Shown here: positions 16,810 through 60,243 of the stretch, in pieces
Layout of the letters: each line of letters opens with the position of its first letter
Numbering within the stretch: the first letter of the stretch is position 1
Assembly: GCA_032128875.1 (NCBI GenBank)
Contig: JAVLKG010000005.1
Location: 256,001-320,000, forward strand
DNA from: Candidatus Melainabacteria bacterium 17Bon1m
GTDB taxonomy: Bacteria > Cyanobacteriota > Vampirovibrionia > Obscuribacterales > Obscuribacteraceae
Length of the DNA stretch: 64,000 nucleotides
Direction of reading: 5' to 3'
Program-made: the position numbers and the translations under genes
The notes under the pieces: generated by a model
The model's input: the letters and a program-made list of their open reading frames with translations, nothing else
What the model was told of the DNA's origin: nothing
Database searches by the model: none

Positions 16810-18078
16810 TTAATTGCTGTGGGAATCTGTAAGTCTCGCTGCTTCGGAATTTGCCACCGGCGCCTTCTTCCAGACATAGACAAACAGCGCTGTTGAGAGC
16901 GAAAGAAGCAGAAAGAACCAGGGATTGAACTGCCCACCGTTGAGCAAGTAATTGTGCTGAATTTCGATTGATACCGGAAGCACAAAAACAATCGTGCCTA
17001 GCATGACTGCAAGTTTCCATACCTGTCCAAAAGGTAAAAGGGAATCATTGAAAATCATAATGATTGTTGGGACCAGCAGCAAAAGATCATAGGTGTGGCA
17101 ATGCATGGAAGCAACGAGTGCCAGCGGCATGAAACCAAGAGCCCCTAGACGTAGAGCGTTTTCATGGTGACGGTATTTCCAGCCAACGAAAACACCGAGC
17201 GCGATGGTCGCAAGATAAAGAGCCGAAGTCACAGTGAAAATTGTTGGTGCTGCGTCCGGAAATAGCCTCAGCAATTGTCCACGCACCGTTGGATTTAGCT
17301 CCGGCTGCATGTAAGGAACGCTGCTCGGCGCACTAACCAATGCCATGTAATTTGATAAGCCAGTCGTCCCCATTTGAAAGAATGCGATAGCACTCAAAAC
17401 AGCGAAAACTATCAAGCAAACTATCAAGGCCTTAAAGCGTTTTGCGCCTGCTAAGTATGCGAGAAAGGGCAGCAGCTGTTGCGGTTTGAGAACGAAGAAG
17501 GCGAGGAACAAACCGGCGCCGATATCTTGTTTTTTCTCGAGACAGTAAATTGCACCCATGTACGAAAGTAGAAGCATTGGAGCAAGCTGATCAATGCGCA
17601 GAGAATTGTAAGCAGCATCAGAAAGCCCGACTGCCGCCAACAAGTAGCATGTTTGCTTGTAGCCAAGATTGAATGTTTTCTTCATTACGAAAATAGCGGC
17701 CGCTAGACAACCGGCAAGCAAGAATTTCCACACGTAACGCATAACCTCGGGTGGCACAAAAGCAATGGGCGTCAGCAATGCCAAACCCTGTGGTGGGACG
17801 AACAGCGGGACAATGCGCTGTCCCATAGATGGATAGAGCCGGTGTTGTGCTTCTTCCAAACCCTTGAGCGTGTATCCGTCTGCGCCACGACCTTCGAGGA
17901 TCAATTTTGCCGGTGCGTAGTATTCAGGCAAATCGCTAATGCCGCCAAAAGCCGGCAGAGACAAATAGATAAGTGTGCATAGGGCACCAACGCCAATCAC
18001 CGCAAAAATCGTCGCGATGATGTTTTCTATCAGCGCGATTTTCCTAGCCTTTTCAGGATTGTCTTCGTTGGTTGTCAA
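16810..18078 (-). CDS. GT87 / DUF2029 GT-C glycosyltransferase
   Basis: DLPEYY, FVPP, DQL, LKPQ, HTYDLLLL; multiple TM segments. Confidence 0.8.
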   Translation of the reverse strand: MTTNEDNPEKARKIALIENIIATIFAVIGVGALCTLIYLSLPAFGGISDLPEYYAPAKLILEGRGADGYTLKGLEEAQHRLYPSMGQRIVPLFVPPQGLALLTPIAFVPPEVMRYVWKFLLAGCLAAAIFVMKKTFNLGYKQTCYLLAAVGLSDAAYNSLRIDQLAPMLLLSYMGAIYCLEKKQDIGAGLFLAFFVLKPQQLLPFLAYLAGAKRFKALIVCLIVFAVLSAIAFFQMGTTGLSNYMALVSAPSSVPYMQPELNPTVRGQLLRLFPDAAPTIFTVTSALYLATIALGVFVGWKYRHHENALRLGALGFMPLALVASMHCHTYDLLLLVPTIIMIFNDSLLPFGQVWKLAVMLGTIVFVLPVSIEIQHNYLLNGGQFNPWFFLLLSLSTALFVYVWKKAPVANSEAARLTDSHSN

Positions 18079-18173
18079 TTTGATGCCTGCCTGCCTCGCC
18101 TTCAGAGCTTAGCGCAGAAACCCCACCAGCGCGGTGCTGAGGGGCAGAATAGTCCGAAAATGGATCTAGTGAA

Positions 18174-18206
18174 TTAGTCCGAAAAATTTCAAATTTTTCG
18201 GACTAA
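18174..18206. promoter_or_regulatory. Perfect 16-bp inverted repeat, candidate operator between divergent GT87 and GT2 genes
   Basis: TTAGTCCGAAAAATTT-C-AAATTTTTCGGACTAA; extra half-site TAGTCCGAAAA at 18150-18160. Confidence 0.55.
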
Positions 18207-18444
18207 AACTATTGAGGTGGCAGCCAGACCCACACGGGGCGGCTGTCAAGTGGGCGCGGTGAATGTTAGGAAAATAAAGAGTTTGTTTTGCGTACGTGAA
18301 CTCGATTGCTTCAAGAACAGCTGGCAAGAGGAAGAAAAAACAGCCGGGATGCTAGGATGAAACCTTTTAGATTCGGGTCTTGGCGGCGCAAGCGCAAACC
18401 ACTTTGCGACCACAAACCTCGGCACTCAGGAAAAGTTTTTAGCT

Positions 18445-19146
18445 GTGAAAAAGCTCTCGATTCTCATACCTGTCTATAACGAGCTTGGCACTTTGGTTCA
18501 GGTGCTCGATCGAGTCATTAAGGCAGAGACTCAGGGATTGGAGAAAGAGCTAGTAATAGTTGACGATGGCTCTACCGATGGAACCCGCGACATTCTCTCG
18601 ACGCTAGACGCTCGCGAATACAACGCCAAGATTTACTTCCATGATAAGAATCAAGGAAAGGGCGCCGCTCTAAGGACAGCGCTGCAGAATGCCACTGGTG
18701 ACGTCATCCTTATTCAAGACGCTGATTTAGAATATGACCCGCGCGAATACAATGAGCTGCTCAAGCCGATTTTGGAAGATCACGCGGATGTCGTCTACGG
18801 ATCACGATTATCCGGCGGAAAGCCCACGCGCGCTTTCAAAATCACACATTTGCTCGGCAACAAATTTCTGAGTTTTTTGACTAACGTCTTGTACGACTGC
18901 ACTTTGACCGACATGGAGACATGCTACAAGGTCTTCAAAGCCGAGTACATCAAGAAAGTGCAGATTCGCTCCAACCGTTTCGATTTCGAGCCTGAAATCA
19001 CCGCCAAAGTGCTGAAACAGAAAGTCAGACTAATTGAATTGCCAATCTCTTACTTTGGCAGAGACTACGCTGAAGGTAAGAAAATCACCTGGAAAGACGG
19101 CTTTGCCGCCATCTTTGCTCTGGTCAAATTCCGATTTACTGATTAA
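18445..19146 (+). CDS. GT2, DPM/DPG-synthase-like polyprenyl-phosphate glycosyltransferase
   Basis: [48 protein letters not shown]. Confidence 0.92.
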
Positions 19147-26773: not shown

Positions 26774-28081
26774 TTGTTAAGGAGCTGGGTGGAGTTGGCT
26801 GTTAATAAGAAAGACACCCTGATCAGGGCTCTGGCAGCGCTTTATCTGGCAGTACTGTTCGTCATCACTTGTTTTATGGTCGAGTGGATGTTCAAGTTGC
26901 CGACCATCAAGTATCACGATTACGCCAAATATTACGCAGCGGCGAAAATTGTCACTTCTAATCAAAGCCACAGAATTTACGACCTGGATTACCAAAACCA
27001 AGTCTGGCAAGACCTGAGCCATGAAAGCAAGACCGGCAGGAAAGTCACACTGGAAATCTCGCCAATTTGGCCGCCCTTTCTTGTCCCGTTTGGTCACCTT
27101 CCGATTCTCGATGCCTACTGGCTGTGGCAGGCCTGTTGGATTTCTTGCGGCGTGATAGGCATCTTCAGCATTTTGCGATCGGTTCATGCCTCGACGCCAA
27201 TTTGGACTAATGTCTATCGAAGTCTTGTTCTGGTAATTGCAACTTTGGCATGTTTGCCTGAAGCGAGAGGAATGGTTTTAGGGCAGCCCTGCTGGCTTAT
27301 CCTCGGTTTTGTCGCGGGCTTTTGTGCTGCCTTTATTGCCAAGCGTGATATCGCTGCTGGTATCATGCTGGCGATTTCGACGCTCAAGTTTCAATATTCT
27401 CCTTTTCTAGGAGTTGCAGCTCTTGCTTCCCGGCGCTGGAAGTTGATTATTGTCGCTGCAATAGTGTTTTTCGCTTTGTCCGTAAGTTCTGCTTCTGTCA
27501 TCGGCGCTGATGCTTTCATTCACGGACCTCTAACTCTCTTGCAGTGGGATTCGAATAAAGAGCTGGAAATCGATATAAATCCTCAATCGATGGTCAATTT
27601 TCGCGGGATTTTGAGCACTTTGTTGAGTCCGGAAATCGCAATGAAGTCCAGTATCTTTCTGATGATCACGGGTCTTTTATTGACACTGAAAATATGGATA
27701 GATGCAATTCGAATTGGTCCAAAGACAATTCCCTGGGCGCTTTCTTTCACTGTTGCTGCCTTTCTTCTCTTCAGCGCGCATGTGCACATGTACGAGTGCG
27801 TGGTGCTCGTTGTTTGTGCTGCCCTTACATTCCCTAGCTTCGATCCTGTGAAGTTGTGCGCGATCAAAGACTGGAGAATGCGTTCGTGGATATTACTCCT
27901 GGTGAGTTATCCTATTCTTCTCTGGTTCATTTTTCTACTTGATGTGAAATTGTTCCATGTGGTTGTGAATGGTTCGAATTTGTCAGTCTTGACTGTTTTT
28001 GCGTTGAACATAATCAACGTAATTTTGCTTTTGCTGGCTTCTGCAAATTTGTATGCATTGAAGGATGACGCTAGAGGATAG
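26774..28081 (+). CDS. GT87 / DUF2029 GT-C glycosyltransferase
   Basis: DYAKYY..IYD, LGQP, LKFQ, HVHMYE; overlaps gmhB. Confidence 0.8.
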   Translation: MLRSWVELAVNKKDTLIRALAALYLAVLFVITCFMVEWMFKLPTIKYHDYAKYYAAAKIVTSNQSHRIYDLDYQNQVWQDLSHESKTGRKVTLEISPIWPPFLVPFGHLPILDAYWLWQACWISCGVIGIFSILRSVHASTPIWTNVYRSLVLVIATLACLPEARGMVLGQPCWLILGFVAGFCAAFIAKRDIAAGIMLAISTLKFQYSPFLGVAALASRRWKLIIVAAIVFFALSVSSASVIGADAFIHGPLTLLQWDSNKELEIDINPQSMVNFRGILSTLLSPEIAMKSSIFLMITGLLLTLKIWIDAIRIGPKTIPWALSFTVAAFLLFSAHVHMYECVVLVVCAALTFPSFDPVKLCAIKDWRMRSWILLLVSYPILLWFIFLLDVKLFHVVVNGSNLSVLTVFALNIINVILLLLASANLYALKDDARG

Positions 28082-28634
28082 TTTGGTTACGTTGGCGAAC
28101 TCGCGTTTGAAGCATCTATTTTTGGACCGCGACGGTATTATCAATTCCGTGGTCATGCGTGAAGCTGTAGTTGGAAGTCCGCGCAACTTGCAGGAGTTCG
28201 AAATAAGAGACGATTTCATCGAGTTCTACAATCAAGCTCGCGAAAGGAATGTGACCCTATATGTGGTATCTAACCAGCCTGATATCCGCCGCGGCTTGAT
28301 GCAAGAAGATGCTCTTGTCGAGATGAGCAATGTTCTTCATTCGCGCTTCGAATTCGCAGAAATCCTATATTGCCGCCACGATAATTCCGATTGTTGCGCC
28401 TGCCGAAAACCTAAGCCAGGCATGTTGATGGAGCTTTTGCAGAAGTTTTGCATAGATCCTGAAGAGACGCTTATGGTGGGCGATAGTCCTAAAGACATTG
28501 AAGCTGCCCATGCAGCAAACGTTAAGTCTGCACTTCTGAAGACGCAATACAATATGCCTTACGAGGAAGCCAAGCCGCCTACTTTGATGATCAACTCTTT
28601 GCTCGAATTGTTCAGCTCTTTAGAGCAAATCTAG
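28065..28634 (+). CDS. gmhB: D-glycero-D-manno-heptose 1,7-bisphosphate phosphatase (HAD IIIA)
   Basis: FLDRDGIIN, SNQ, CRH...CACRKPKPGML, GDS..D. Confidence 0.88.
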   Translation: MTLEDSLVTLANSRLKHLFLDRDGIINSVVMREAVVGSPRNLQEFEIRDDFIEFYNQARERNVTLYVVSNQPDIRRGLMQEDALVEMSNVLHSRFEFAEILYCRHDNSDCCACRKPKPGMLMELLQKFCIDPEETLMVGDSPKDIEAAHAANVKSALLKTQYNMPYEEAKPPTLMINSLLELFSSLEQI

Positions 28635-28668
28635 GTCCGCGATTTTTTGGCTAAACGACTGCCTTTGG

Positions 28669-29400
28669 CTATTTCGCTTGTAGCACTGCTGAACGCTTTT
28701 GCGTCAGCGCTGCTCTGTGTGGGTTGAAAAAACTTCTCCAGCGCCATATGCGTTTGAAAGTCCAGATCGTTCCTGGAATAGGCACTATCTTACTGTCGCC
28801 AATGCGCGGCTTGTAGTTGATGAACATCTCTTCGCAGCGATAACCAAGGCAGTAGGGTCCAATCTGCAATTCCACCGGCAACGCCATTCCCTCAGGTTCG
28901 TACGGAAAGTCTTCAAGCATGGTCTTGCGATAGGCGCGCATACCCGTGTGCACGTCCGTGCTATGAGCATTGCAAAGTATGCGCGAACAAAATGCGAAGA
29001 CCCAATTAGCAACATAGTGCGAGAAATGCATTGCTTCCGGTCGCTTGCCCAATCGTGACGCGCTCACCAGATCTGCCCCCTTATCCATGCGGCTGATTAA
29101 TTCATCGATTGCTTCAACCGGATAGGTATCGTCGCAATCGAGGGTGATTACATATTCTCCTGATGCTTTTCTCAGGCCTGCGTCCATCGCCCATCCATAG
29201 CCTTTGGGAGGAAACTGGCGAACGACCGTGCAATCCAACTCCTCTGCAATTTTTGCCGTGTTGTCTGTGCTGCTGTCCACTACTACGATTTCCGCTGTCG
29301 GTAAGACGCCGCGGATGTCATTGACGACCTTCGCTATTGCTCGCTCCTCGTTGAGAGTGAGAAGAACGCAAGATACGCTAGTTCGGGTTTCCTTGCTCAT
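28669..29400 (-). CDS. GT2, polyprenyl-phosphate glycosyltransferase-like
   Basis: LNEE, VDSSTD, GYG, DCDDTYP, DVHTGMRAY, RIGDSK. Confidence 0.9.
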   Translation of the reverse strand: MSKETRTSVSCVLLTLNEERAIAKVVNDIRGVLPTAEIVVVDSSTDNTAKIAEELDCTVVRQFPPKGYGWAMDAGLRKASGEYVITLDCDDTYPVEAIDELISRMDKGADLVSASRLGKRPEAMHFSHYVANWVFAFCSRILCNAHSTDVHTGMRAYRKTMLEDFPYEPEGMALPVELQIGPYCLGYRCEEMFINYKPRIGDSKIVPIPGTIWTFKRIWRWRSFFNPHRAALTQKRSAVLQAK

Positions 29401-30626
29401 TTGCTGCTCTCATTTGCGTAAAGTGCCAGTATGTCTGCGCCTCTCAAGTCCATTCCTATTTTATAAAGGTATTCAGGACCAAAGATACCTTTGAAGAGGT
29501 GTGAGGCTGTTTCAACATAGACCGGTTTCAAGCCTTGCTTGCTCATCAGGTCGGCGAGCGACTTTGGCGAGAAATAACGCACGTGATCGAACTTGAACGA
29601 ATAATAGTAATCTCCCAGGATGTCTGCTTCGATTGCGGAAAGATTTGGCGTTCTAACAACGATTACGCCATCATCGGCAAGATATTGCTTAAGGATTCCG
29701 ACCACTTCATCTGCGAATTCCAAATGCTCGATGACGTCCCACATTGTTATGAGTTGAAACTTCATGCCTTTGGCTACAGACTCGAGGTTTTCTACGCGGC
29801 AATTCCACGTGTCGAACCCGAAGACTTCTTTGCACTGCGCGATGATGTCTGTCGAAAGGTCTATTCCAAAATGTTGAAAACCGAGATCGTGCACTGCTTT
29901 TCTGAAGTATCCGATACCTGAGCCGACGTCCAGCATTTTGACATCAGAAGGATTGGCTAACCATTTGTCACGTCGCCAGCCGGCGTTTTCCACTGTTGTG
30001 TTGATCAGACGGCGTGACTTCTCTAAGCGCCAATCCATCTGCACACTGTAGTGTTTCATTCCATAGTGCGCTGTTCCTTCTGAGCCAAAGTAAGCGTTGT
30101 CATAAACGATACTATCGGCGGTGACTAGCTGATTGTCTTTTGTGTTTACCAACCAGGCGAATTCCAGGTCTTTGTTGCCGATGACACTGCGTGATTTGTC
30201 GCCACTTACGGATTGCGCATAGACAATATTCGGCTTTTGACCCTGTGGACCAACTACCAATGCTTGGGAGCCTGCATCCGGTCGTGTGCCGCCATAAAGA
30301 ATTTCATCTGTCGCTTGCTTCAAGCAATCGAACTGCTTGTTGGGAGGCAAATCTCTAAGCTGCTCGCCGAACTTGGATTTCGCGAGCGCTACGGTCCGCT
30401 CGACATAGGCGCGCGCTTTTTCCTCGTCGATTTCCAAAAGACGGCAGAATGCCTGTTTCCAGTGGTCATGGTCGTCGTAAAACTGCACCGAACCGTCGTT
30501 TACGTACAACAACCCCATGGTGGTTTCTACCCAGCCACCGGGGCTGGTCGGTTTGTCCTTCACGTTCTTTCCCAAAGCATTAGATTGCATTTTTGCGTGG
30601 TCCATAGTAATTGTCGCCTGGCACAA
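29397..30626 (-). CDS. Class I SAM-dependent methyltransferase with extra N-domain
   Basis: LDVGSGIG, WDVIEH, TPN, HVRYFS; overlaps the GT2 gene. Confidence 0.85.
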   Translation of the reverse strand: MCQATITMDHAKMQSNALGKNVKDKPTSPGGWVETTMGLLYVNDGSVQFYDDHDHWKQAFCRLLEIDEEKARAYVERTVALAKSKFGEQLRDLPPNKQFDCLKQATDEILYGGTRPDAGSQALVVGPQGQKPNIVYAQSVSGDKSRSVIGNKDLEFAWLVNTKDNQLVTADSIVYDNAYFGSEGTAHYGMKHYSVQMDWRLEKSRRLINTTVENAGWRRDKWLANPSDVKMLDVGSGIGYFRKAVHDLGFQHFGIDLSTDIIAQCKEVFGFDTWNCRVENLESVAKGMKFQLITMWDVIEHLEFADEVVGILKQYLADDGVIVVRTPNLSAIEADILGDYYYSFKFDHVRYFSPKSLADLMSKQGLKPVYVETASHLFKGIFGPEYLYKIGMDLRGADILALYANESSK

Positions 30627-30714
30627 ACTAGTTATACCCTGCAGCTATTTTCCCGAAAGTGACCGGGCCGCCTTAGCTGGGTATATTTTTCTCAAGTGGC
30701 AGCAGGATGAATCT

Positions 30715-31464
30715 ATGGACGTTGAAAAATGTAAGGTGAAGATTTTTGGCGATGGTGCCGATAAAAAGTCGATTTTAGAATTGAATGCCAATCCGTTAAT
30801 ATCCGGATTTACTACAAACCCCACCCACATGCGGAAATCCGGCGTTGAATGTTATGAAACGTTCGCGCGGGATATTCTCAGTCTCGTCACCGAGAAGCCT
30901 ATTTCGTTTGAAGTTTTTTCGGACGATCTCGATGAAATGGAAGAGCAGGCTCGAGAAATAGCCAGTTGGGGCAGAAATGTCAACGTTAAAGTTCCAATAA
31001 CCAATACCCGTGGTACCTCCACGCTTCCGATCATCAGGCGGTTGTCCGCTGACGGCATCAAGCTGAATGTCACCGCAATGACGGTTTATGAGCAAGTAGC
31101 CGGTGTGGCGCCTATTCTCAGCGACGGTTGCGGTGGTATGGTCAGCGTTTTTGCCGGACGCATCGCCGACTCAGGCAAAGATCCAATACCGGTAATGAAG
31201 TCCTGTGTGGAGCTTTTGGAGTCCTGCCCAGGTGTAGAGCTGATTTGGGCAAGTCCACGCGAGATTTTGAACCTGGTACAAGCTGAAAGCATCGGCTGCC
31301 ATATCATCACGATTACGAGCGACATATTGAAGAAACTGCCGCTCTTGGGCGGCGATCTGGTTGCAGTATCGCTGGATACCGTGAAAATGTTCTACAACGA
31401 CGCCTCGGCTGCGGGCTTCAAAATCCGTATACGTGCGGCGGAACTGCAGGACCAACAAGTCTAG
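30715..31464 (+). CDS. tal: Transaldolase (short TalC/FSA-like type)
   Basis: GFTTNPT, SFEV, VKVP Schiff-base Lys, FAGRIAD, WASPRE; ATG 30715 preferred. Confidence 0.9.
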   Translation: MDVEKCKVKIFGDGADKKSILELNANPLISGFTTNPTHMRKSGVECYETFARDILSLVTEKPISFEVFSDDLDEMEEQAREIASWGRNVNVKVPITNTRGTSTLPIIRRLSADGIKLNVTAMTVYEQVAGVAPILSDGCGGMVSVFAGRIADSGKDPIPVMKSCVELLESCPGVELIWASPREILNLVQAESIGCHIITITSDILKKLPLLGGDLVAVSLDTVKMFYNDASAAGFKIRIRAAELQDQQV

Positions 31465-32732
31465 GCTTCTGCAACAGGTCCGGACTTAAGGTTCAATACG
31501 CAAAGTACCAAGAGAACAACGTTGACTGCCATCAAGAGCAGTCCGGTGGTTTCTGGTGTCGTAATTCCGCAAAACCAAGTCAGCGCCGGATATGCAATGA
31601 GTGTTAGCGTTAAAAATGCCCTGGCGGGGCGCTTCTGAAGGTCGATCAGAATCGGGCTTAGACTGATCTGCTGGAGGTAAATTGCTGCAGGTAGGGCGAG
31701 AATCAGCATGTCGTAAGAAGGCATGTAAGGCGTGAATAGAATCATCAGCAACATCGTTGTTGTAAATGCGTCGTCGAATCTGGTTTGTCCATATTTGCGC
31801 CAAATAAGGATAGTGGCCAATGCTCCAATGGGAAACAGCGCCGCGCCCACTTTCAGCGCCAGAGCGATAGGCATGGTTACGTTGAAGATCATTTTCAAGC
31901 AAACGATCGATCTCATTTCAGGCGTCGAACTTATGGCATATGCGACTTTCGGATAGCTGGAAACAGTTTCCCAGCCCAGGTTGGCGATAGATATGGCGAA
32001 CAATCCTAAGATCAAGAATATTGCGGTAAAGGCTGTTTTCCACCGCCGCTGGACTAACTCTGCGATTATGAAAAGTGCGGCGATGTGCGGCTTTAGACCA
32101 ATTAGTCCGAGTGCAAAACCTGAAAGAAGTGGACGATTTGTCTTGCGTGCATAGTAATAGAAGAAAAAGAAACCCAGCAAGAAGAAGCTGAACTGACCGA
32201 TACGCAAACCATGTGCCGCCGGGACGCTGCCTAGCAAATAAAGTACGAATAAAGCAAGGCTAGATAATCTCCACCCTTTCAGTTTGCAAAGGACTGAGTA
32301 TATCCCTGAAAGCGACAGTAGAACTCCCACGAGTGTGAAGACAGCGAATGCTAGTCCCAGCGGCAGCAATGCGAAAAGCTGAAACAATGGAATTATGTAG
32401 GGCGTCGAAATAACATTGAAATTTCCCACTTCCATTTTGGGATGAACGAGGTCCGTAATTACGCGCATCTGGGTGGGCAGGTCATACACCAGATGTTTCA
32501 AATCCGCCTGATTAGCCATTAAGCCACAGATGTAGAAGCGAGGAAAATCGGTTATCTGCGACTTCCCTGTAAAACCGGCATAAGTAAATAGGTTGTCGCC
32601 AAGCGCAGAAAGAACAACGAGCCCGTACACGCAAATGTCCCACATGATGATGAGACACCATGCTCCGAAAACCGCTAATCGTTTGACTTTTTCAGTTTCT
32701 GCCCAGCTGATCAGTGATTCAGAAACCTTCAT
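31461..32732 (-). CDS. GT87 / DUF2029 GT-C glycosyltransferase
   Basis: DFPRFY..VYD, IGQFS, LKPH, PYMPSYD; start overlaps the epimerase stop. Confidence 0.8.
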   Translation of the reverse strand: MKVSESLISWAETEKVKRLAVFGAWCLIIMWDICVYGLVVLSALGDNLFTYAGFTGKSQITDFPRFYICGLMANQADLKHLVYDLPTQMRVITDLVHPKMEVGNFNVISTPYIIPLFQLFALLPLGLAFAVFTLVGVLLSLSGIYSVLCKLKGWRLSSLALFVLYLLGSVPAAHGLRIGQFSFFLLGFFFFYYYARKTNRPLLSGFALGLIGLKPHIAALFIIAELVQRRWKTAFTAIFLILGLFAISIANLGWETVSSYPKVAYAISSTPEMRSIVCLKMIFNVTMPIALALKVGAALFPIGALATILIWRKYGQTRFDDAFTTTMLLMILFTPYMPSYDMLILALPAAIYLQQISLSPILIDLQKRPARAFLTLTLIAYPALTWFCGITTPETTGLLLMAVNVVLLVLCVLNLKSGPVAEA

Positions 32733-33709
32733 TTCTGAGCTACCATCGCGCGGATCGAATGTCGGATAGCGTCTCCCGAAAGATATTTCGGTTGCCAGCC
32801 AGTGGCGCGAATCTTGTCGGTATTGAGGCGAATGATTGGCACATCACCTTTCCAGCCTCTGTCGCCGCCGGCATAATTGAGCTTCACTACCGCGTCCTTG
32901 CCGAGTACTTCTTCGATTGCGATAGCAGCAATTTCGCTGACGGTTATGTAGTCACCTGTGGCAACATTGAATGTGTCAAACCGAACCTGTGACTTTTCGT
33001 GCGCTGTCCAAACGGCTTTGACAATATCATCAATGTACACGTAAGACTTGCTTTGTGAGCCGTCTCCGAGGATGTCCAACTCTTTGGGATTTTCTCTCAA
33101 TTTGCGCACGAAATCGTAGCCGATGCCGTGAGTTTGCCTTGGCCCGACGACGTTTCCAAAGCGAAATGCAATTCCTGAGAAGTTGAACATATAGCTGTAT
33201 GCCGCAATCAGCCCTTCTCCAGCCAGTTTGCTCGCGCCATAGGTCGAGATAGGAATCATCGGCGCGTAGTTTTCTGCGGCTTCTGTCATACCGATATCGC
33301 CGTAAACACCACTGCCTGATGCGTACAGTATGCGTTTTGCCCCGCTCAATCGCATTGCTTCGACTACACATTGTGTGAGCGCGGTGCCTTGATCGAAATC
33401 GATTGTAGGTTCGCGAACAGCGCGCGCTATATCAGGGTTGGACGCTAAATGAATAACAGTTTGGTGACCCTTCATTTGCTCGGCCAGCGCATCGAGATTT
33501 TCTATTTTGCCTTCGTAGACATTGATCTTGCCGCTATCTAAATGCGGCTTCAGATGCTCGATATGCCAGCGCTGTCCTGATGAAAAATTATCGTATATCG
33601 TCACCCTTTCTATAGAGGGTGTTTCAACCAGCATGCTGGTGAAATGACTGCCGATAAAACCGGCACCGCCTGCTATGAAAACGCTCTCCTTGTCAGGCAT
33701 TGTTTCCAA
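32729..33709 (-). CDS. NAD-dependent NDP-sugar epimerase/dehydratase
   Basis: GGAGFIG, YGASK, RFGNVVGP. Confidence 0.93.
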   Translation of the reverse strand: METMPDKESVFIAGGAGFIGSHFTSMLVETPSIERVTIYDNFSSGQRWHIEHLKPHLDSGKINVYEGKIENLDALAEQMKGHQTVIHLASNPDIARAVREPTIDFDQGTALTQCVVEAMRLSGAKRILYASGSGVYGDIGMTEAAENYAPMIPISTYGASKLAGEGLIAAYSYMFNFSGIAFRFGNVVGPRQTHGIGYDFVRKLRENPKELDILGDGSQSKSYVYIDDIVKAVWTAHEKSQVRFDTFNVATGDYITVSEIAAIAIEEVLGKDAVVKLNYAGGDRGWKGDVPIIRLNTDKIRATGWQPKYLSGDAIRHSIRAMVAQK

Positions 33710-34991
33710 CCCCTTCGCGGACTCTCGCCGCCACTGTTTTGGCAGAGCGGATTACCGCATCTGAATTCAAATAGTTGAATTCTGCAAAGCGACCGCACAA
33801 TTCGATCTTTTGTTCGGCGCAGAATGCATTTACGATCTCCAAGTTTTTTTCTCTGTGCAAATCGTAAATCGGATAGGCGTATTTCACCCGCTTCACCGCA
33901 GTGGTGACCACTTCGTTTTTCTGGATCAAGCCTTCTCTTGTCAGATCATCAATCACTCGCTGAGCCACCTGCTCGTCCGTCATGGAGAACGTCTGGTCAT
34001 TTTCTTTTCCTGTGATTTCTACTACCATCGAAGAGCATCCTTCAGGTGCATAGTTGCTTCCGAAATAGTCAAAGAATACGAGCCTGTGAAAAATAATTTC
34101 CTTTTCTGGAAAGAAGCAAGTGACCATATCCTCTCTGCGAGGGCGATTCAGTCCTACCATCACAACAATCAATGAATTGTATTGCAGCGCGGAGACTGCC
34201 TTGGCGACCTCTGTTGGAACATCTTCCAGCGAAGCTACGAGATCGTAAATCGGCATTGCGCAAATCAGTTTTTCATACTCGCGTTCGTCTTTATCGCTTA
34301 TGACACGCCATGTTTGCTTGTCTTTCAAAACTTTTTTGACGGGAAACTCAGTGGTAATTTGACCAGGGAGATGCTCGGCCAGAGTCTTGGGAAGCGTTTC
34401 AAAACCGCCTGTCTTAGGATAGTGAAAATAGAGCTGATGAACATAGCCTTCAGTCTCGATTCCTAAGGCAGATTTGACAAGGTCCTCTACGGGCGGCTTG
34501 GGCACTCGCTCTACCCACTGAACCCCCATCTCCGTAAGAGGCGTTTTCCAGATTTTCTGGTTGTAGGGAATCAAATATTTTTCTGCCAGGCCTTTACCGA
34601 AAGTGTTATAGATCCAGTCTTCGAAGTTGTTTTGGGGTCTGGGCGGATTGTTGACAAAGCCGACAAGAATTTCGTAAATGTCCTCTTTGTCCAGCACGGA
34701 GAGCCCGTTTTCAAATGGATATTTAACGAACCGATTTTTGTAATAGCAATTTGCTTTTCGAAAAAGCTTATTGGTTTTTCCCTCGAGCAATTCCAGTTCG
34801 AAGTCCAAAATCTCAGTGTCTCGCGAAAAAATAATATGTCCACCTAAGTCGAAGGTGAATCCATCTTTTTCATAGCTCTTGCAGAGCCCGCCAACGGATG
34901 CGCTTCTCTCGAGGATCTCGCAATCTTTTCCGATAAAATATCCGAGGCTAAGCCCCGCTACACCACCGCCCAAGATGCCGATTTCTTTCAA
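33693..34991 (-). CDS. FAD-dependent oxidoreductase, NDP-sugar pyranose mutase (Glf)-like
   Basis: GGGVAG, FDLGGH, PYNQKIW, WVERVP, YP..GG, YAYPIY, GRFAEFNYLNSD. Confidence 0.75.
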   Translation of the reverse strand: MKEIGILGGGVAGLSLGYFIGKDCEILERSASVGGLCKSYEKDGFTFDLGGHIIFSRDTEILDFELELLEGKTNKLFRKANCYYKNRFVKYPFENGLSVLDKEDIYEILVGFVNNPPRPQNNFEDWIYNTFGKGLAEKYLIPYNQKIWKTPLTEMGVQWVERVPKPPVEDLVKSALGIETEGYVHQLYFHYPKTGGFETLPKTLAEHLPGQITTEFPVKKVLKDKQTWRVISDKDEREYEKLICAMPIYDLVASLEDVPTEVAKAVSALQYNSLIVVMVGLNRPRREDMVTCFFPEKEIIFHRLVFFDYFGSNYAPEGCSSMVVEITGKENDQTFSMTDEQVAQRVIDDLTREGLIQKNEVVTTAVKRVKYAYPIYDLHREKNLEIVNAFCAEQKIELCGRFAEFNYLNSDAVIRSAKTVAARVREGVGNNA

Positions 34992-35002
34992 GACTTTCTC
35001 CG

Positions 35003-35983
35003 CTAAGAAACCATGAGTTTTGTGCCTGAAAAGTCGAGTTTAAACCGCAGTTCTTCGACATTTACATTGTGCATCGCTTGACGCAGACGAAGTTTGTCTT
35101 CGCTGTAAAACATCAAAAATCCGCCACCGCCTGCGCCAATGAGTTTGCCTCCAACGGCGCCATTGTCCATAGCAAGTTTGTATAGCTCATTGATTCTTTC
35201 GTTCGAAATTCCTTTCGAGCGCTTTTGCTTGTGTTGCCAGTGCTCGTGCATCAACTCGCCAAACCCGCGTAAATCGCCGCCTTCGAGCGCGTTTTTTATC
35301 CTGAAGCCTAATTCTTTGGTGAAATGCAAATTGTCCAAAATATCTGATTCTGATTTGTTGGTTCTGTCATCTTGATCTTTCAAAACTTCAGATGCAGAGC
35401 GGGAATAGCCAGTGAAGAAAATGGCGAGATTATCTTCCAGGGAATACAAAGTCTCTTTGGAAATTTTTGCCGGTTTTGCTTCTACCGTTCCATTCGTGGT
35501 GACGTCAAAGCAAGTGACACCGCCGTATGCGGCGATGAATGGATCTTGCTTGCCTACCGGCTCTTTCAAATGCTCAATTTCAATTTTGCAAGCCTTTTCT
35601 GCCAGGTCATGCGGACTAAGCCAGTAGTTTCGTTTGTGCGCATACAGTGCTTTCAGCAGTGCTGTTGTGAAACTGCCTGAGGAGCCTAGCCCTGTACCGG
35701 CGGGGATGTCCGCCATGCTGCATATTTCAATGTTTGGTCCAATCTCCAATTGTTCAAGAGCCGTTCGCACAATTGGATGTCGAATTTCCGTGACTTTCTT
35801 TGCGCGCTCCAGCTGAGAATACTTGATGACATATTCGTCGTTCCATGATTGATGGACCATGACGTACATGTACTTGTCAATCGCAGCTGAAAGGAAGAAT
35901 CCGGAGAATCGGCTGTAGTATGAGGGCAGGTCCGTGCCACCTCCGCCCAAAGATATTCGCATTGGACTTCTTGCGATGATCAT
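35003..35983 (-). CDS. hddA: D-glycero-alpha-D-manno-heptose-7-phosphate kinase (GHMP family)
   Basis: PMRISLGGGGTD, PAGTGLGSS, GKQD, GAGGGGF. Confidence 0.9.
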   Translation of the reverse strand: MIIARSPMRISLGGGGTDLPSYYSRFSGFFLSAAIDKYMYVMVHQSWNDEYVIKYSQLERAKKVTEIRHPIVRTALEQLEIGPNIEICSMADIPAGTGLGSSGSFTTALLKALYAHKRNYWLSPHDLAEKACKIEIEHLKEPVGKQDPFIAAYGGVTCFDVTTNGTVEAKPAKISKETLYSLEDNLAIFFTGYSRSASEVLKDQDDRTNKSESDILDNLHFTKELGFRIKNALEGGDLRGFGELMHEHWQHKQKRSKGISNERINELYKLAMDNGAVGGKLIGAGGGGFLMFYSEDKLRLRQAMHNVNVEELRFKLDFSGTKLMVS

Positions 35984-36001
35984 TTGCTGTTCAACTCGCT
36001 C

Positions 36002-36607
36002 CTAAGCTTTCAGTGTTTCCGATTCCCATTTCGCTGCATTTACCTGCAGGAGCGGATGCGACACGAGAAGGTGCCACATTACAGCCTGAAAACCTTCGGT
36101 AAGAGGTGTCACCAGGTTTGATTCGACAGGCGGAATAATAATTGCGGCATCAGCCTCTTTTGCGGTGTAACCGCCGTCCTTGCCTACAATTCCGACTATC
36201 GTTGCACCTTTTTCTTTTGCATAAGCGACGGCATTGACAAGATTGGCGCTGATATTTCGCTCTGTGCTGCCACCACCGACGGAGAATACCAAAAGACCAT
36301 CTCGACTGCTTAAGCGACTTACTTTGAGCCAGTTGCTGAGAGTGGTGTCCCACCCTTCATCGTTGACGCGTGCAGTCAGTTCTGAAACGTTATCGTACGG
36401 TGCATACGTTTCGATATTGCAAATCTTTCGAAAATCGCAAGTGGCATGAGAAGCATGGCCAGCGCCGCCGCCGGATCCGATAATGAAAAGTCGCCCTTCT
36501 CGGTCTCGTACTTTGGCTAGATGCTCTGCAGCGCTTTCCAGCGCATCTGCGTCTATCGTCTCTATCACTTTGGCGCAATGCGCCAGGAAGTCACGAGAAA
36601 AGCTCAT
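36002..36607 (-). CDS. gmhA: Phosphoheptose (sedoheptulose-7-P) isomerase, SIS domain
   Basis: IGSGGGAGHASHATCDF, LTARVND, SVGGG, E..Q..WH; ATG 36607 preferred. Confidence 0.85.
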   Translation of the reverse strand: MSFSRDFLAHCAKVIETIDADALESAAEHLAKVRDREGRLFIIGSGGGAGHASHATCDFRKICNIETYAPYDNVSELTARVNDEGWDTTLSNWLKVSRLSSRDGLLVFSVGGGSTERNISANLVNAVAYAKEKGATIVGIVGKDGGYTAKEADAAIIIPPVESNLVTPLTEGFQAVMWHLLVSHPLLQVNAAKWESETLKA

Positions 36608-36772
36608 TTGACGTCTCCTGCCTACCAATACTGCTATTCCCCCTAGAGTACTAACAAAACGATATCAGCAGAGCCTCGAAAGAGGCTCTTTTCAAATAAG
36701 GTACCTTGCTTCGAGCTGATATTATTGCTTGAGACGATATTCCGCGCAGAATTGCGTTCCCACGGTTTAGGG

Positions 36773-37987
36773 ATGACAGAAGGCTCTTCAGGTTCAAATT
36801 TAAAGGCAATGGACGGGCATTCACCTGTTTTGTCCGTGGTCATGCCTTGCTTGAATGAAGAAGGCGCCCTGGCGATTTGTATCGAGAAAATCAACAAGGC
36901 TTTTACTGAAAACAACATCGACGGCGAAATTGTACTTGCCGATAATGGTTCGACAGATAGATCTGTAGAAATTGCTGAAAGCATGGGTGTGCGAGTCGTT
37001 CACCAGCCTAAAAGGGGCTATGGCAACGCTTATCAAAAGGGCTTCGCAGCCGCCAGGGGAAGCTATTTCATCATGGCTGATGCAGATGATACCTACGATT
37101 TTGCACTAATTCCGAAGTTCTTGGAAAAGTTACTGGAAGGATACGATTTCGTCACTGGCAGTCGATATCTCGAAAATGGCGGCACAAACATAACCTGGCT
37201 GCACCGCTATGTCGGTAACCCGCTCCTCACTCTCGGTCTGAATACGCTTTTCGGAACGCCATACACTGATGTGTATTGTGGCTATAGAGCCTTTTCTAGG
37301 GAAGCTTACGAGAAGGTTCGCCCCGTCAGCCCGGGTATGGAATTCAACTTAGAACTCGCTATCAATGCTCACCTTGTAGGTCTTAAATACTGCGAGATAC
37401 CGATTGCTCTGGCCCCGCGCATCGGCGAGTCGAAGTTGAACACTTTCAGAGACGGCTGGCGCAGTCTCAGAATGATGATTCTCTACTGCCCGAACAAAGT
37501 ATTCATCATTCCAGGTGTCACGCTTTTCATTGCGGGCATGATCGTCTACACAATTGTTTTGTTCAGTCTGGTGCGCTTCGAGGGACGCTCCCTGGGACAA
37601 GTAACCAGTATTGTAGGCACCGTGCTTAGTGTCGTTGGAGTGCAAACGCTGCTGCTCGGGTTGCACGCAAAGACGTATTCCTGGAGCCGAAGATTCGACC
37701 CAAACCAAAAGTTTCTCTCTAAGTTTTACAGCATCTTCAATTTAGAATCTGGCTTGTTGCTTGGCTCAACGATGGCTCTAACAGGTTTGATCGTCTTTGC
37801 CGTGATTACATACAACTGGTTCAAATCCGGCTTTCTTCCTGTTCCACGTCCCGAATTTGCTTCATTGGCAGGAACAATGATAATCATCGGGCTGAGTGTT
37901 ATTTTCTCGTCGATTTTTATCAGTGCAATGTCAGTCACTAAGGGCAATGATTCCGCAGCTCCAGTGCGGGACGACAACGCTGATTAG
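36773..37987 (+). CDS. GT2 with C-terminal TM helices (dolichol-P-glucose-synthase-like)
   Basis: MPCLNEE, DNGSTD, GYG, DADDTY, SKLNTFRDGWR plus four TM segments; start uncertain (36725-36809). Confidence 0.9.
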   Translation: MTEGSSGSNLKAMDGHSPVLSVVMPCLNEEGALAICIEKINKAFTENNIDGEIVLADNGSTDRSVEIAESMGVRVVHQPKRGYGNAYQKGFAAARGSYFIMADADDTYDFALIPKFLEKLLEGYDFVTGSRYLENGGTNITWLHRYVGNPLLTLGLNTLFGTPYTDVYCGYRAFSREAYEKVRPVSPGMEFNLELAINAHLVGLKYCEIPIALAPRIGESKLNTFRDGWRSLRMMILYCPNKVFIIPGVTLFIAGMIVYTIVLFSLVRFEGRSLGQVTSIVGTVLSVVGVQTLLLGLHAKTYSWSRRFDPNQKFLSKFYSIFNLESGLLLGSTMALTGLIVFAVITYNWFKSGFLPVPRPEFASLAGTMIIIGLSVIFSSIFISAMSVTKGNDSAAPVRDDNAD

Positions 37988-38719: not shown

Positions 38720-40141
38720 ATGCTTTTCAATTCCGTCGAGTTTTTACTGTTTTTTCCGATAGTAACTGCTCTGTATTTCATTCTCCCGAACCGCTGGCGT
38801 TGGCTGCTGCTCTTTCTTGCCAGTTGTTTGTTCTACATGGCGTGGATACCAATCTATGTCACTATTCTCTTTCTGATAATAATCGTCGACTATGTAGCCG
38901 CGCGCAAGATTGAAGGAGCGACCGGCAGCAAGCGGAAGCTATTCCTGCTTGTGAGCGTTATCGCCAACGTTTCGCTTCTTGCGATTTTCAAATACTACGA
39001 TTTCCTCTGCCAAAACTTCACTGAGATTTTGCAACTCTTGCACATCTCTTGGAAGTTTCCAGCGTTGAATTTGATTTTGCCGATCGGACTTTCTTTCCAT
39101 ACCTTTCAGGCGCTCGCGTACACCATCGAGGTCTATCGCGGCAATCAGCCGGCTGAGCGTCACCTGGGCATCTACGCGCTGTACGTGATGTTCTATCCTC
39201 AGCTCGTCGCCGGACCAATCGAGCGCCCGCAAAATCTAATTCACCAGTTCAAAGAAGACCATCGATTCGTGCCTGAAAACGTCGTCAGTGGCTTACGGCT
39301 GATGCTCTGGGGCTTCTTCAAAAAAGTTGTAATCGCCGACAGGTTGGCAATGCTCGTCAATCAGGTCTACAACCAGCCCCACGAGTACAGTGGTTTACCG
39401 CTCTTGATAGCGACTTATTGTTTTGCTTATCAAATTTACTGTGATTTTTCCGGCTACAGTGATATCGCAATTGGTGCCGCAAGAGTGATGGGCATCAATC
39501 TCATGAAGAACTTCAATTCGCCCTATGCAGCCTCGAATATTCAGGATTTCTGGCATCGCTGGCACATCTCACTGTCTACGTGGTTTCGCGATTATCTCTA
39601 CATTCCTTTGGGCGGCAGTAAGTGCGGTGAATTCTTTCGGCTGAGAAATATCATCATCGTGTTTTTTGTAAGCGGACTGTGGCACGGCGCTAACTGGACA
39701 TTTGCAGAGTGGGGATTGTTGCACGGTCTTTTTATCGTTGCCTATATCTACTGGAAGCGATTATCCATCCCCAAACTCTTGCCTGCCGCTTTGCATCAAT
39801 TCATCAGCTTGTTTATCACATTCAATGCAGTTTGCTTTGCGTGGATATTCTTCCGAGCCAACTCAATCGCCGATGCCCACTGGATTGTGCAGCATCTCTT
39901 CCCGCTGAATAACGCGGACAAGCTCGGCAATCTTGGTCTGACGGGAGGCGAAATACTCGTCTCGATCGTGGCGATTTTTATTCTTGAACTGGTTCAATTC
40001 CTTGAGCGAAATAAAGGTGGAGTGGCGTTCTTTGAAAAACAAAAACTCACGACTCGCTGGATTTGTTACTACACTCTTTTCTTCATTATCATTGTTCTTG
40101 GTGAGTTTGGTGGCGCAAGGTTTATCTATTTCCAATTCTAG
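38720..40141 (+). CDS. MBOAT O-acyltransferase (AlgI/DltB/PatA-like)
   Basis: MLFNS, LPIGLSFHTFQ, DFSGYSD, FWHRWHISLS, GLWHGA, FIYFQF end. Confidence 0.95.
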   Translation: MLFNSVEFLLFFPIVTALYFILPNRWRWLLLFLASCLFYMAWIPIYVTILFLIIIVDYVAARKIEGATGSKRKLFLLVSVIANVSLLAIFKYYDFLCQNFTEILQLLHISWKFPALNLILPIGLSFHTFQALAYTIEVYRGNQPAERHLGIYALYVMFYPQLVAGPIERPQNLIHQFKEDHRFVPENVVSGLRLMLWGFFKKVVIADRLAMLVNQVYNQPHEYSGLPLLIATYCFAYQIYCDFSGYSDIAIGAARVMGINLMKNFNSPYAASNIQDFWHRWHISLSTWFRDYLYIPLGGSKCGEFFRLRNIIIVFFVSGLWHGANWTFAEWGLLHGLFIVAYIYWKRLSIPKLLPAALHQFISLFITFNAVCFAWIFFRANSIADAHWIVQHLFPLNNADKLGNLGLTGGEILVSIVAIFILELVQFLERNKGGVAFFEKQKLTTRWICYYTLFFIIIVLGEFGGARFIYFQF

Positions 40142-40150
40142 ATTTCGAGC

Positions 40151-41179
40151 ATGAAACAGTTTTTCAAACAAGCATTGATATTTATTTCGATCATCCTTAT
40201 TCCGATGTTGGGTGTGGAAATTTCCTTGCAAAGTTTGAGGCAGTATCAGTGGTTTAACGGATATTCAAGGCTATACAAAGACGCCAGAGTGGACACGATT
40301 TTTCTTGGTAATTCGATCATCAATGCGGCAGTTCGTGAGAAGGAATTTGCAAAGCAAGTCAGCCAGCCAGGAAAACCAGAGAGGTCTGCGCTCAATCTCG
40401 GGCAGGGCTATACAACGCCCGTGGAATACTTGTTTGGGCTTCAGCGCATGGTTGAAGTCAACCCGCACGTTTTCGAGGGCGCTACTATTTTTCTGCCTGC
40501 CACAGGCGGCTTGCCGGATATCCGCACATGGCAAGACAACTGGATGAATTGGCACCAGCCCGCACTACTGGCTGATTACATTAGTTATCCATATCTATGG
40601 CAATATTGTCTGAAGCCTAATGTTTCCCTCTCTGAAAAGGTTCTGCTCGTTTGCAGCAAGCACAGCGAGCTGATTGCGCAAGGCGGACTACTGCGCGTCG
40701 GCACGATGTACAGCCTGGATGAAGCTGCCGAATGGCTGACGCACGGTGGCAAAATCGCCAAGAAAGGCGTGTTGATTGTCCAGGAAGGCGGAATCAGAAC
40801 CGACGAAGCGGCTGTCGCTAACTTCCAGGCTATGGCTCGCCGTCAGGCGGCAGCCGACCTGGTTAACCAAAAACCAGTCGACTGGGACAAGATAGTTCTC
40901 AAAGAAATAGTCGAGTATATTCAGCGACATGGCGGAAAAGTCTGCTTCTGCTACATTCCAGTGGGATCTGTAATGAGTAAGCCACTTTCCACAGATATTC
41001 GAAAGCAGGACATCAAAGATTTCGAGGACGTGGCTAAGAAGTGGGGTTGCAAGTATTACCATCCAGATTTCCAACCAGAAGGCGACGAAGATTTTCCAGA
41101 CATGATGCACTTGAGCGAACCGAAATCGCATCTTTATACTAAAGCGCTTTCGGAAGCTTATCTTCGAGATCCGCCCTAG
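40151..41179 (+). CDS. SGNH-like periplasmic acyltransferase partner (AlgJ/DltD-like)
   Basis: N-terminal TM, FLGNS, DMMH near the C-terminus; directly follows the MBOAT gene. Confidence 0.7.
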   Translation: MKQFFKQALIFISIILIPMLGVEISLQSLRQYQWFNGYSRLYKDARVDTIFLGNSIINAAVREKEFAKQVSQPGKPERSALNLGQGYTTPVEYLFGLQRMVEVNPHVFEGATIFLPATGGLPDIRTWQDNWMNWHQPALLADYISYPYLWQYCLKPNVSLSEKVLLVCSKHSELIAQGGLLRVGTMYSLDEAAEWLTHGGKIAKKGVLIVQEGGIRTDEAAVANFQAMARRQAAADLVNQKPVDWDKIVLKEIVEYIQRHGGKVCFCYIPVGSVMSKPLSTDIRKQDIKDFEDVAKKWGCKYYHPDFQPEGDEDFPDMMHLSEPKSHLYTKALSEAYLRDPP

Positions 41180-48168: not shown

Positions 48169-48747
48169 TTAGTTGAATCCCAAGAAGGTCAGTGTCTGCT
48201 TCTGGAAGAACATGGCGATCACTGTGCCCAGTGCAATTGCCAGTCCGATCGGGATGCGCTTCTTTCTGACTTCGGTAAGTTTTTCCGAATCGACTTGCGG
48301 CGCAACCAGTTTTCCGCCCAGGGCCACTGCCGCAAAGGCGTTGAAAACTTGCTTCCAGGGAATCAAGCGACCTAACTGAAACATCGAAATTGCGCCGTAG
48401 CAAAGTGCGAAATAAAAGAAAGTAACGAGCACAGTTGTTGTGCCGAGAAATGCGCCCATGCATGCCATCAATTTTGCATCGCCCATGCCCATCGGCCCGT
48501 CTTCACCATATTTAGGACCGATTGGCAGGTAGATGAAGAACAAAGTGATGGCGGCGCCGACAAACCACCCGGTCACCGACTGTAGTGCGCCGTCCATGCC
48601 CTTGTCCAAATAGTTGAGAAGAATTGCTGCAGCGGATGCAGGGAATGTCAGCAAGTTCGGAATCTTTTCAGTGCGCCAGTCTATTACGAGCGCAATCATT
48701 ACGACTACTATTGCTATTACTTGTGTGATCGTCGTCAGCTGTGTCAC
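48169..48747 (-). CDS. cpaA: Flp prepilin peptidase (A24; TadV/CpaA)
   Basis: IDWRTEKIPN, GMGDAKL, IPIGLAIALG. Confidence 0.9.
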   Translation of the reverse strand: MTQLTTITQVIAIVVVMIALVIDWRTEKIPNLLTFPASAAAILLNYLDKGMDGALQSVTGWFVGAAITLFFIYLPIGPKYGEDGPMGMGDAKLMACMGAFLGTTTVLVTFFYFALCYGAISMFQLGRLIPWKQVFNAFAAVALGGKLVAPQVDSEKLTEVRKKRIPIGLAIALGTVIAMFFQKQTLTFLGFN

Positions 48748-48820
48748 GGTGTTCTTTCTTTCCTTCGGATTCCGTCTAAGCCAGATGCTTTCGGTTTTCT
48801 TTTTTTACAAGATAACCTAA

Positions 48821-49195
48821 TTACAAAACAGCGATGCAGTCGATTTCGACTGCAACGTCGCGCGGCAATTTTGCCACCTGGACTGTGGCTCTTGCCGGTT
48901 TGTGATCTGGAAAATGACTGCCGTAGACTTCATTCATATCAGTGAAATCTCCCATGTCTTTCAAGTAGACAGTGGTTTTCACCACCTTTGAAAAGTCTGC
49001 GCCGGCGGCGTCGAGTATTGCTGCCAAGTTGGACATGACTTGTTTTGTCTGATCGGTAATGGATCCTTCGACCAGATTACCGCTTGCCGGATCGATTGGA
49101 ATTTGTCCGGAGACGAAGACCATTCCATTGGCAACGATTGCTTGAGAGTATGGGCCGATGGCTTTCGGCGCTGTGTCCGTAGCAACAACTTTCAT
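48821..49195 (-). CDS. ridA: RidA/YjgF reactive imine deaminase
   Basis: APKAIGPYSQA, SGQIP, PARATVQVAKLP, VEIDCIA. Confidence 0.95.
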   Translation of the reverse strand: MKVVATDTAPKAIGPYSQAIVANGMVFVSGQIPIDPASGNLVEGSITDQTKQVMSNLAAILDAAGADFSKVVKTTVYLKDMGDFTDMNEVYGSHFPDHKPARATVQVAKLPRDVAVEIDCIAVL

Positions 49196-50641: not shown

Positions 50642-50643
50642 CG

Positions 50644-60240: not shown

Positions 60241-60243
60241 CCA

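Follow-up and report, generated by a model that had tools for sequence, protein, structure and literature searches.

A candidate route to a polyprenyl-phosphate-linked heptose, probably a furanose, in a recurrent bacterial gene cassette

We analyzed a 64,000-nucleotide stretch of the genome of Candidatus Melainabacteria bacterium 17Bon1m (contig JAVLKG010000005.1, positions 256,001 to 320,000; hereafter, the window), in which a cluster of heptose-precursor genes is interleaved with glycosyltransferases of the GT2 and GT87 families. On sequence evidence, we favor a reading in which this cluster makes a heptose donor carried on polyprenyl phosphate, probably in furanose form, for use by extracytoplasmic transferases of the GT-C class. 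The original prediction for this locus had proposed such a modified, possibly furanose, lipid-linked heptose and had tied it to GT87 enzymes. Our results support the donor and its use by GT-C enzymes at the sequence level but not the GT87-specific form of the proposal; the donor hypothesis emerges strengthened, and its anchor is a GT2, a flavin mutase and an epimerase rather than GT87.

Genes and transcription units of the cluster

We scanned the 51 open reading frames (ORFs) of the window against Pfam and used NCBIfam cut-offs for equivalog calls. All eleven genes named in the original prediction, and both gene overlaps, were found in place. By strand they fall into five units: gmhA-hddA-mutase-epimerase-GT87b (minus), a transaldolase (plus), methyltransferase-GT2a (minus), GT87a-gmhB (plus) and GT2b (plus). 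The packed operon of the original prediction is the first of these units; the region as a whole is not a single operon.

The gmhA operon begins with a gene for a divergent SIS protein resembling GmhA, the sedoheptulose-7-phosphate isomerase (36002-36628, likely start 36607; PF13580). Next, after 18 nt, comes an hddA-like GHMP kinase gene (heptose-7-phosphate 1-kinase; 35003-35983; NF049969 HddA, E 5.5e-45, below cut-off) and, after a further 11 nt, a gene for an FAD-dependent pyranose-furanose mutase of the eukaryotic UGM type (33693-34991). An SDR epimerase resembling GDP-sugar 4-epimerases (32729-33709) follows, its stop overlapping by 4 nt the start of the final gene, GT87b (31461-32732; PF09594, E 3.6e-22). 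The plus-strand transaldolase gene occupies 30715-31464 from an ATG at 30715, with the longest ORF running from 30517, and its product scores above the TIGR02134 cut-off. On the minus strand, a class I SAM methyltransferase gene (29397-30626; PF13489) overlaps by 4 nt, and is translationally coupled to, that of GT2a, a soluble DPM-synthase-type GT2 (28669-29400). The GT87a gene (26774-28081, plus; PF09594, E 1.8e-10) overlaps by 17 nt a gmhB-like gene (28065-28634, plus) for a HAD-IIIA phosphatase that scores above cut-off for TIGR01656 and below it for NF006506 (E 3e-33). Divergent from gmhA lies GT2b (36725-37987, plus), which encodes an AglJ/DPM-synthase-like GT2 with four predicted transmembrane (TM) helices.

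The GC content of the cluster (46-50%) is similar to that of its flanks. A count of promoter-like sites (9, with 13.1 expected) and terminator-like sites (21, with 15.3 expected and a standard deviation of 3.3) was given no weight. As had been predicted, the Pfam scan of the 51 ORFs returned no Wzx, Wzy, GT9 or polysaccharide ABC exporter; elsewhere the genome holds five GT9s.

A conserved set of predicted donor-synthesis enzymes

The top solved relatives of GT2a in the PDB, PfDPMS, ArnC and GtrB, are all polyprenyl-phosphate glycosyltransferases. D88-x-D90, R116, N132 and the stretch H151-G153-M154-R155 are invariant in 83 orthologues, and at the level of sequence GT2a has the features of the polyprenyl-phosphate sugar synthase of three-component glycosylation systems. 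Its best NCBIfam match is a haloarchaeal family of dolichyl-phosphate hexose transferases, which it reaches with a score of 158 against a cut-off of 375. Matches on plasmids are haloarchaeal too, at 38-40% identity, and 9 of 12 are annotated with that activity. We presume that this family is founded on the haloarchaeal protein HVO_1613. GT2a thus very probably makes a lipid-phosphate sugar, and it is predicted to be a polyprenyl-phosphate heptose synthase. Its nearest matches, from 97% down to 55% identity, are from Melainabacteria or Obscuribacterales, and its subfamily comprises 1274 proteins at E <= 1e-40. A search of the Atlas with a GT2a homologue returned only GT2 clusters. Two of these look-alikes are from Thermoplasmatota and are a lead only; the N-glycan of Thermoplasma contains a heptose.

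Apparent gene fusions were set aside as evidence. A GT2a-GmhA fusion at locus L031 was discarded, the extension being an unrelated secreted-type protein. At three loci (L031:2567-4012, L049:4095-5486 and L055:1213-2598) GT2a runs in frame, with no stop, into this secreted-type protein, which has many paralogues in this genome. Continuous ORFs were found only at L044, where GT2a leads into a GmhA-like domain, and at L079 and L081, where it leads into a nucleotidyltransferase; all three contain a linker and an internal Met, and we give them little weight.

The original prediction had called the FAD protein mutase-like, correctly: all 14 of its PDB matches are eukaryote-type UGMs (best E 5.5e-32). 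We mapped its residues through an alignment with 3UTE (offset 3) and the ligand table for AfUGM (PMC3624792), counting conservation in 69 distinct orthologues and 37 further sequences. Equivalents of AfUGM H63, N163, W167, R182, R327, Y419, R447 and Y453 are kept in 69/69 orthologues, and the F158 position is an invariant Tyr. Thus, the protein shares with the eukaryote-type UGMs (PDB 4DSG, 3UTE) the GGH histidine loop, the diphosphate-binding Arg/Tyr set and the FAD-binding Arg. The residues that recognize UDP-galactose differ. In AfUGM, Q107 hydrogen-bonds uracil and N207 hydrogen-bonds galactose (PMC3624792); in the cassette mutase these are Glu (E94) and Gln (Q186), respectively, each in 69/69 orthologues. 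W315 is replaced by a small residue at position 291 (Ala 55, Ser 10, Gly 3, Thr 1). Where covered in the 37 further sequences, the same positions are Glu in 36/36, Gln in 31/31 and Ala or Gly in 28/28. As controls, a UGM-like domain from Pantoea retains Q, N and W, and two more UGM-like proteins from outside the cassette retain W. With its catalytic residues kept and invariant substitutions where the nucleobase and the sugar bind, the mutase likely works like a UGM on a substrate other than UDP-galactose. A Glu at the base site would suit guanine, and loss of the Trp, which we take to contact the C6 arm of galactose in AfUGM, may make room for a C7 arm. The Pantoea domain (L127:5676-9404, on a plasmid) is itself fused behind about 760 residues in a protein of 1242 aa.

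By sequence the epimerase belongs with the GDP-sugar 4-epimerases. Five PDB sequences, among them 8RDG (E 3e-68), 3EHE, 3ICP and 3AW9, match it at E values down to 2e-54, with the next family at 4e-30. Of these, 8RDG, 3EHE and 3AW9 form a promiscuous GDP-sugar 4-epimerase subgroup that prefers GDP-sugars (PMC12171764). The traits of this PhGal4E_1 subgroup are found in our protein: it is closest to the members and carries YxxxK and a conserved Trp-containing motif near the C-terminus, the Trp of which may be the one that stacks on GDP.

For each of the GmhA-, HddA- and GmhB-like proteins, the best curated or solved match is a heptose enzyme. All 12 PDB matches of the GmhA-like protein are phosphoheptose isomerases (best E 2.8e-8), and its His61, Asp65, Glu178 and His186 are invariant where aligned in 37-39 orthologues. 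hddA is single-copy in the genome and no other close gmhA was found there; the sole other SIS_2 match is a protein that we take to be MurQ-like. The transaldolase likely supplies sedoheptulose-7-phosphate. All four enzyme types of the GDP-D,D-heptose pathway (GmhA, HddA, GmhB and HddC) are present in the genome, three in the cluster and the nucleotidyltransferase, assigned by PF00483 only, about 140 kb away at C5:434555-435361. This gene was identified as the best match for 8 of 10 cassette-encoded nucleotidyltransferases of other genomes, five of them at 39-44% identity. A GTP specificity for its product, which the GDP-type epimerase of the cluster would support indirectly, is a possibility. 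The gene lies in a large envelope-glycan region (C5:405000-490000, about 85-170 kb past the window) that also contains rhamnose and ABC-type exporter genes, along with several GT2s and large membrane proteins.

We counted neighboring genes, assigned by BLAST best hit, at the best 80 of 204 GT2a loci. Many of these are short contigs; 17 are from Vampirovibrionia and 63 from other lineages, mostly Thermoanaerobaculia/Acidobacteriota with a few Polyangia. Across the 80 loci we found the mutase at 69, the epimerase at 67, the methyltransferase at 62, hddA at 49, the transaldolase at 36, gmhA at 34 and gmhB at 32. At the 29 non-Vampirovibrionia loci of at least 15 kb, the mutase occurs at 29, the epimerase and a nucleotidyltransferase at 26 each, and a heptose gene at 18. 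The 28 non-Vampirovibrionia loci that lack hddA represent 27 genomes, and hddA is encoded elsewhere in 27/27; in the three of these hddA regions examined it lies with gmhA and a transaldolase, and in two of them with gmhB as well. Among 61 genomes of relatives (this one included), hddA is present in 16/18 GT2a-positive versus 9/43 GT2a-negative genomes and the mutase in 15/18 versus 3/43, and among 81 Thermoanaerobaculia genomes hddA is present in 14/14 versus 15/67; kin are not independent, which overstates significance and counts against leaning on these tables, and we use the Fisher tests descriptively only. Of 66 partly redundant metagenome loci, 31 span at least 5 kb, and these include the mutase in 26, the epimerase in 25 and hddA in 16. 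The cassette thus turns up in several unrelated lineages of uncultured bacteria, with examples from Vampirovibrionia, Thermoanaerobaculia and myxobacteria as well as from metagenome contigs with GC contents of 21-68%. Its conserved core is GT2a, the UGM-type mutase, the GDP-sugar 4-epimerase, the nucleotidyltransferase and GmhA/HddA/GmhB/transaldolase, and not GT87 with heptose genes. The link between a GT2 and heptose genes is kept across phyla for GT2a. A GT2b-like gene occurs at 8/80 GT2a loci, and GT2b is accessory, outside this core.

GT-C partners differ between lineages

GT87 enzymes such as PimE use polyprenyl-phosphate sugars outside the cytoplasm. A profile of 11 GT87s matches the PimE structure 9DM5 (E 6e-8), and the acidic loop after TM1 expected of GT-C enzymes is present, with PF09594 above cut-off and an invariant Asp: Asp62 after TM1 in GT87b and an aligned catalytic-loop Asp in GT87a. 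The original prediction had expected the linkage between GT87 and heptose genes to be conserved in related genomes. This is not what the neighborhood survey returned. GT87 occurs at 8/17 Vampirovibrionia GT2a loci versus 0/63 loci of other phyla, and all 36 family relatives carry 1-8 GT87s, even the 16 that have no hddA and no GT2a; we therefore reject a GT87-specific linkage. Among the loci examined, close orthologues of GT87a at the same position occur only in genomes G008 and G011, and elsewhere in the genus the GT87s encoded after the epimerase share just 22-28% identity with GT87b. In one genome, G045, the cassette occurs without any GT87 match. Genome-wide, 17Bon1m has seven GT87 matches, three of them in the window, and 12 PMT_2 matches.

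The expectation did hold for GT-C enzymes as a class. In 40 of the 63 non-Vampirovibrionia loci, the Thermoanaerobaculia/Acidobacteria operon includes a membrane protein of 600-670 aa with no Pfam match and an invariant Asp-Glu after TM1. A model of the Acidobacteria protein (pLDDT 92, pTM 0.90) has a predicted GT-C fold, matching ArnT best (E 4.7e-6), followed by ALG12, EmbC and AglB. At other loci, PMT_2, YfhO, DUF2142 or ALG9-like proteins are encoded. Two scans of neighboring membrane proteins found no Pfam family for 23/43 and 11/26; beyond the one family that was folded, those lacking a Pfam family are GT-C-like by TM count and acidic loop only. The scan of 26 also included one GT87 (at L133) and two Wzy_C/O-antigen ligases. 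Because the GT-C partner differs between lineages, donor synthesis is the stable unit and the transferase is swapped by lineage. Several relatives carry, in or beside the cassette, membrane proteins 730-800 aa long that include a spermidine-synthase-like domain (L032:11955-14345, L038:13550-18063).

In our genome, we lean toward GT87a or GT87b as the user of the GT2a product. A third GT87 (GT87c) and a third DPM-type GT2 (GT2c) form a divergent pair at 16810-19146, which is retained near the cassette at 84-96% identity at loci L048 and L052 and may be a lipid-sugar module of its own. Other donors may come from GT2b and from the GT2c/GT87c pair.

Further along the window, 38720-41179 encodes an MBOAT protein (DltB/AlgI-like, below cut-off) and a 342-aa partner without a Pfam match; MBOAT adjoins the cassette in 7/20 relatives' loci and could acylate the same glycan. 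A Tad/Flp pilus locus (48169-55555; prepilin peptidase, two TadB/C-type proteins, ATPase, CpaB) would offer pilins as a possible glycosylation acceptor. Finally, a second sugar-related group at 57077-62004 consists of split transketolase N and C genes, an SDR epimerase, DUF362 and a squalene-cyclase-like repeat protein.

A proposed pathway and its alternatives

From the genes, families, linkage, co-occurrence and active-site signature that we observed, we infer a route in its substrates, step order and ring form alike. Sedoheptulose-7-phosphate, supplied by the transaldolase, would be converted by GmhA, HddA and GmhB to heptose-1-phosphate, which the nucleotidyltransferase acting in trans would turn into GDP-heptose. 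The GDP-type 4-epimerase would then epimerize C4 and the mutase contract the ring, giving a GDP-heptofuranose that GT2a would load onto polyprenyl phosphate. After transport across the inner membrane by a flippase, a lineage-specific GT-C, here likely GT87a and/or GT87b, would transfer the sugar to an envelope acceptor at the outer face of that membrane; lipid A, core, O-chain and protein are candidates. We consider it likely that the lipid-linked sugar is derived from heptose and, if it is, we have slightly greater confidence that it is a furanose. It would have talo configuration if GmhA gives a manno product, and other isomers would follow from a HygP-like GmhA. The methyltransferase, whose PDB matches are too weak to give a substrate, may O-methylate the product.

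Among known systems, the C. jejuni capsule heptose pathway shares the same four upstream enzyme types followed by epimerization and ring contraction on the GDP-sugar, and GDP-heptofuranose mutases have been proposed in its capsule loci (PMC10680097, PMC12369002). There, the nucleotide sugar goes to capsule synthesis, and the heptose mutases are called uncharacterized (PMC10680097); in contrast, the cassette mutase belongs to the eukaryotic UGM type and is accompanied by a lipid-carrier GT2 and GT-Cs. With three-component glycosylation (GtrA/GtrB/Gtr*; Citrobacter undP-Ribf/GT136; ArnC/ArnEF/ArnT), the cassette shares a polyprenyl-phosphate sugar synthase and a lineage-variable GT-C (PMC11127046). 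Those systems are known for Glc and pentofuranoses, with heptose unmentioned in that paper, and their described furanose donors derive from PRPP (PMC11127046), whereas for the cassette we predict a heptose donor, probably in furanose form through the action of a flavin mutase on a GDP-sugar, and the cluster has no GtrA or MATE flippase. Mycobacterial Ppm1/PimE mannosylation likewise joins a soluble DPM-synthase-type GT2 to a GT87. Unlike this system and haloarchaeal HVO_1613/AepG, where HVO_1613 is termed a DolP glycosyltransferase (PMC9943897), the cassette sits in a diderm host with a predicted non-mannose donor. We found no description of a lipid-linked heptose donor in the literature searched, outside which lie most subscription papers and supplements, and the accessible parts of two reviews do not mention one (PMC7729866; PMC13721041).

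Several observations weigh against our reading. The Pfam scan found no GtrA, SMR or MATE flippase in the cluster, and GtrA (PF04138) was not found in the genome (7.55 Mb, 93% complete), where SMR and MATE families were not searched; two PF03706 proteins are encoded outside the cluster. In other genomes PF03706, the TM region of LPG synthase, lies beside or inside the cassette as a candidate flippase (L133:8683-9666, L147:708-1724, L155:6239-7138). GT2a has Tyr or Phe at the basic acceptor-loop residue of PfDPMS, and DxDxTY replaces DADxQ. A profile of eight cassette-adjacent GT87s scores strongly in cassette-negative genomes (G028, 1.5e-93), and, with three GT2s and as many GT87s inside 22 kb, donor-acceptor pairing is ambiguous. 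hddA is missing from two of the 18 GT2a-positive relatives, both of which are fragmented assemblies. None of the heptose-precursor proteins shows equivalog-level identity: GmhA reaches 45 bits against a cut-off of 209 (TIGR00441), HddA 154 against 600 and GmhB 115 against 178. The canonical catalytic residues of GmhA, with its manno product, are likewise not all found, since Asp occupies the E. coli Glu65 position in 39/39 orthologues and, in a manual alignment to what we take to be E. coli numbering, Glu stands at Gln172. By sequence, these scores and Asp65 lower the case that this is a canonical GmhA, not the case that it works like one. Asp65 marks it as a distinct subfamily, whose heptose product may have another stereochemistry. 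Together with GmhB and HldE, HygP produces an altro-heptose from sedoheptulose-7-phosphate, a case of an isomerase that uses this substrate toward another heptose product (PMC10948575).

The alternative that survives best, which we nonetheless regard as unlikely, is that the mutase and GT2a make a lipid-linked hexofuranose, either galactofuranose or a furanose derived from a GDP-hexose, and that the heptose genes accompany them because they contribute elsewhere to the same envelope glycan. The tightest partner of GT2a is indeed the mutase and not the heptose genes: the pair holds at 29/29 of the large loci versus 18/29 with a heptose gene, and 25/63 non-Vampirovibrionia loci have none. GDP-type 4-epimerases are also described as promiscuous, in a text that does not mention heptose (PMC12171764). 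Against this stand the recovery of hddA in 27/27 genomes with split loci and 14/14 sampled GT2a genomes, the invariant Q107E, N207Q and W315-to-small changes, with non-cassette UGM-like proteins differing at the Trp site, and an in-operon nucleotidyltransferase and GDP-type epimerase that point away from UDP-galactose. We regard as quite improbable a cytoplasmic fate for the GDP-heptose (furanose), in which ordinary glycosyltransferases would build it into the LPS core or into a polysaccharide exported by an ABC or Wzy system; the GT2s and GT87s would then use common donors and be neighbors because envelope genes cluster. The five GT9s alongside a gmhA with no close second copy, the universal and multi-copy GT87s of the family and the nucleotidyltransferase adjoining genes that, from their sequences, read as an ABC-type polysaccharide locus would all fit such a role, as would the GDP-heptofuranoses proposed for the capsules of C. 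jejuni HS:10 and HS:41 (PMC10680097). However, across phyla GT2a sits with the mutase on one side and the nucleotidyltransferase/epimerase on the other, and the large neighboring membrane proteins are mostly GT-C-like where assignable. That the SIS protein, GHMP kinase and HAD phosphatase act on some other sugar phosphate, making the lipid-linked product no heptose at all, would fit their sub-cut-off scores and the weak similarity of GmhA to solved phosphoheptose isomerases (E 2.8e-8), but it is the least probable reading given that a heptose enzyme is the best curated or solved match for each, that the genes travel with a dedicated transaldolase and that HygP provides precedent for a sedoheptulose-7-phosphate isomerase with a different heptose product (PMC10948575).

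The preferred reading, a lipid-linked heptose donor, can be extended to a widespread pathway to polyprenyl-phospho-heptofuranose, possibly O-methylated, in which a re-tooled eukaryote-type flavin mutase acts on GDP-heptose and a dedicated GT2 subfamily feeds interchangeable GT-C families; this broader form we advance tentatively, with rather more doubt than the donor itself. Because the enzymes up to the lipid step are all predicted to be soluble, the pathway is open to rebuilding in vitro, and the E/Q/small-residue signature offers a marker separating cassette mutases from galactofuranose mutases. If the proposal is true, it would define a new class of lipid-linked donor and a new mutase specificity, and the few known lipid-linked monosaccharide donors would be joined by one with seven carbons, likely a furanose. 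A class of substrate could then also be assigned to a large GT2 subfamily that lacks annotation, to a UGM-like family and to several GT-C families without a Pfam entry in soil, freshwater and marine bacteria with poorly known envelopes.

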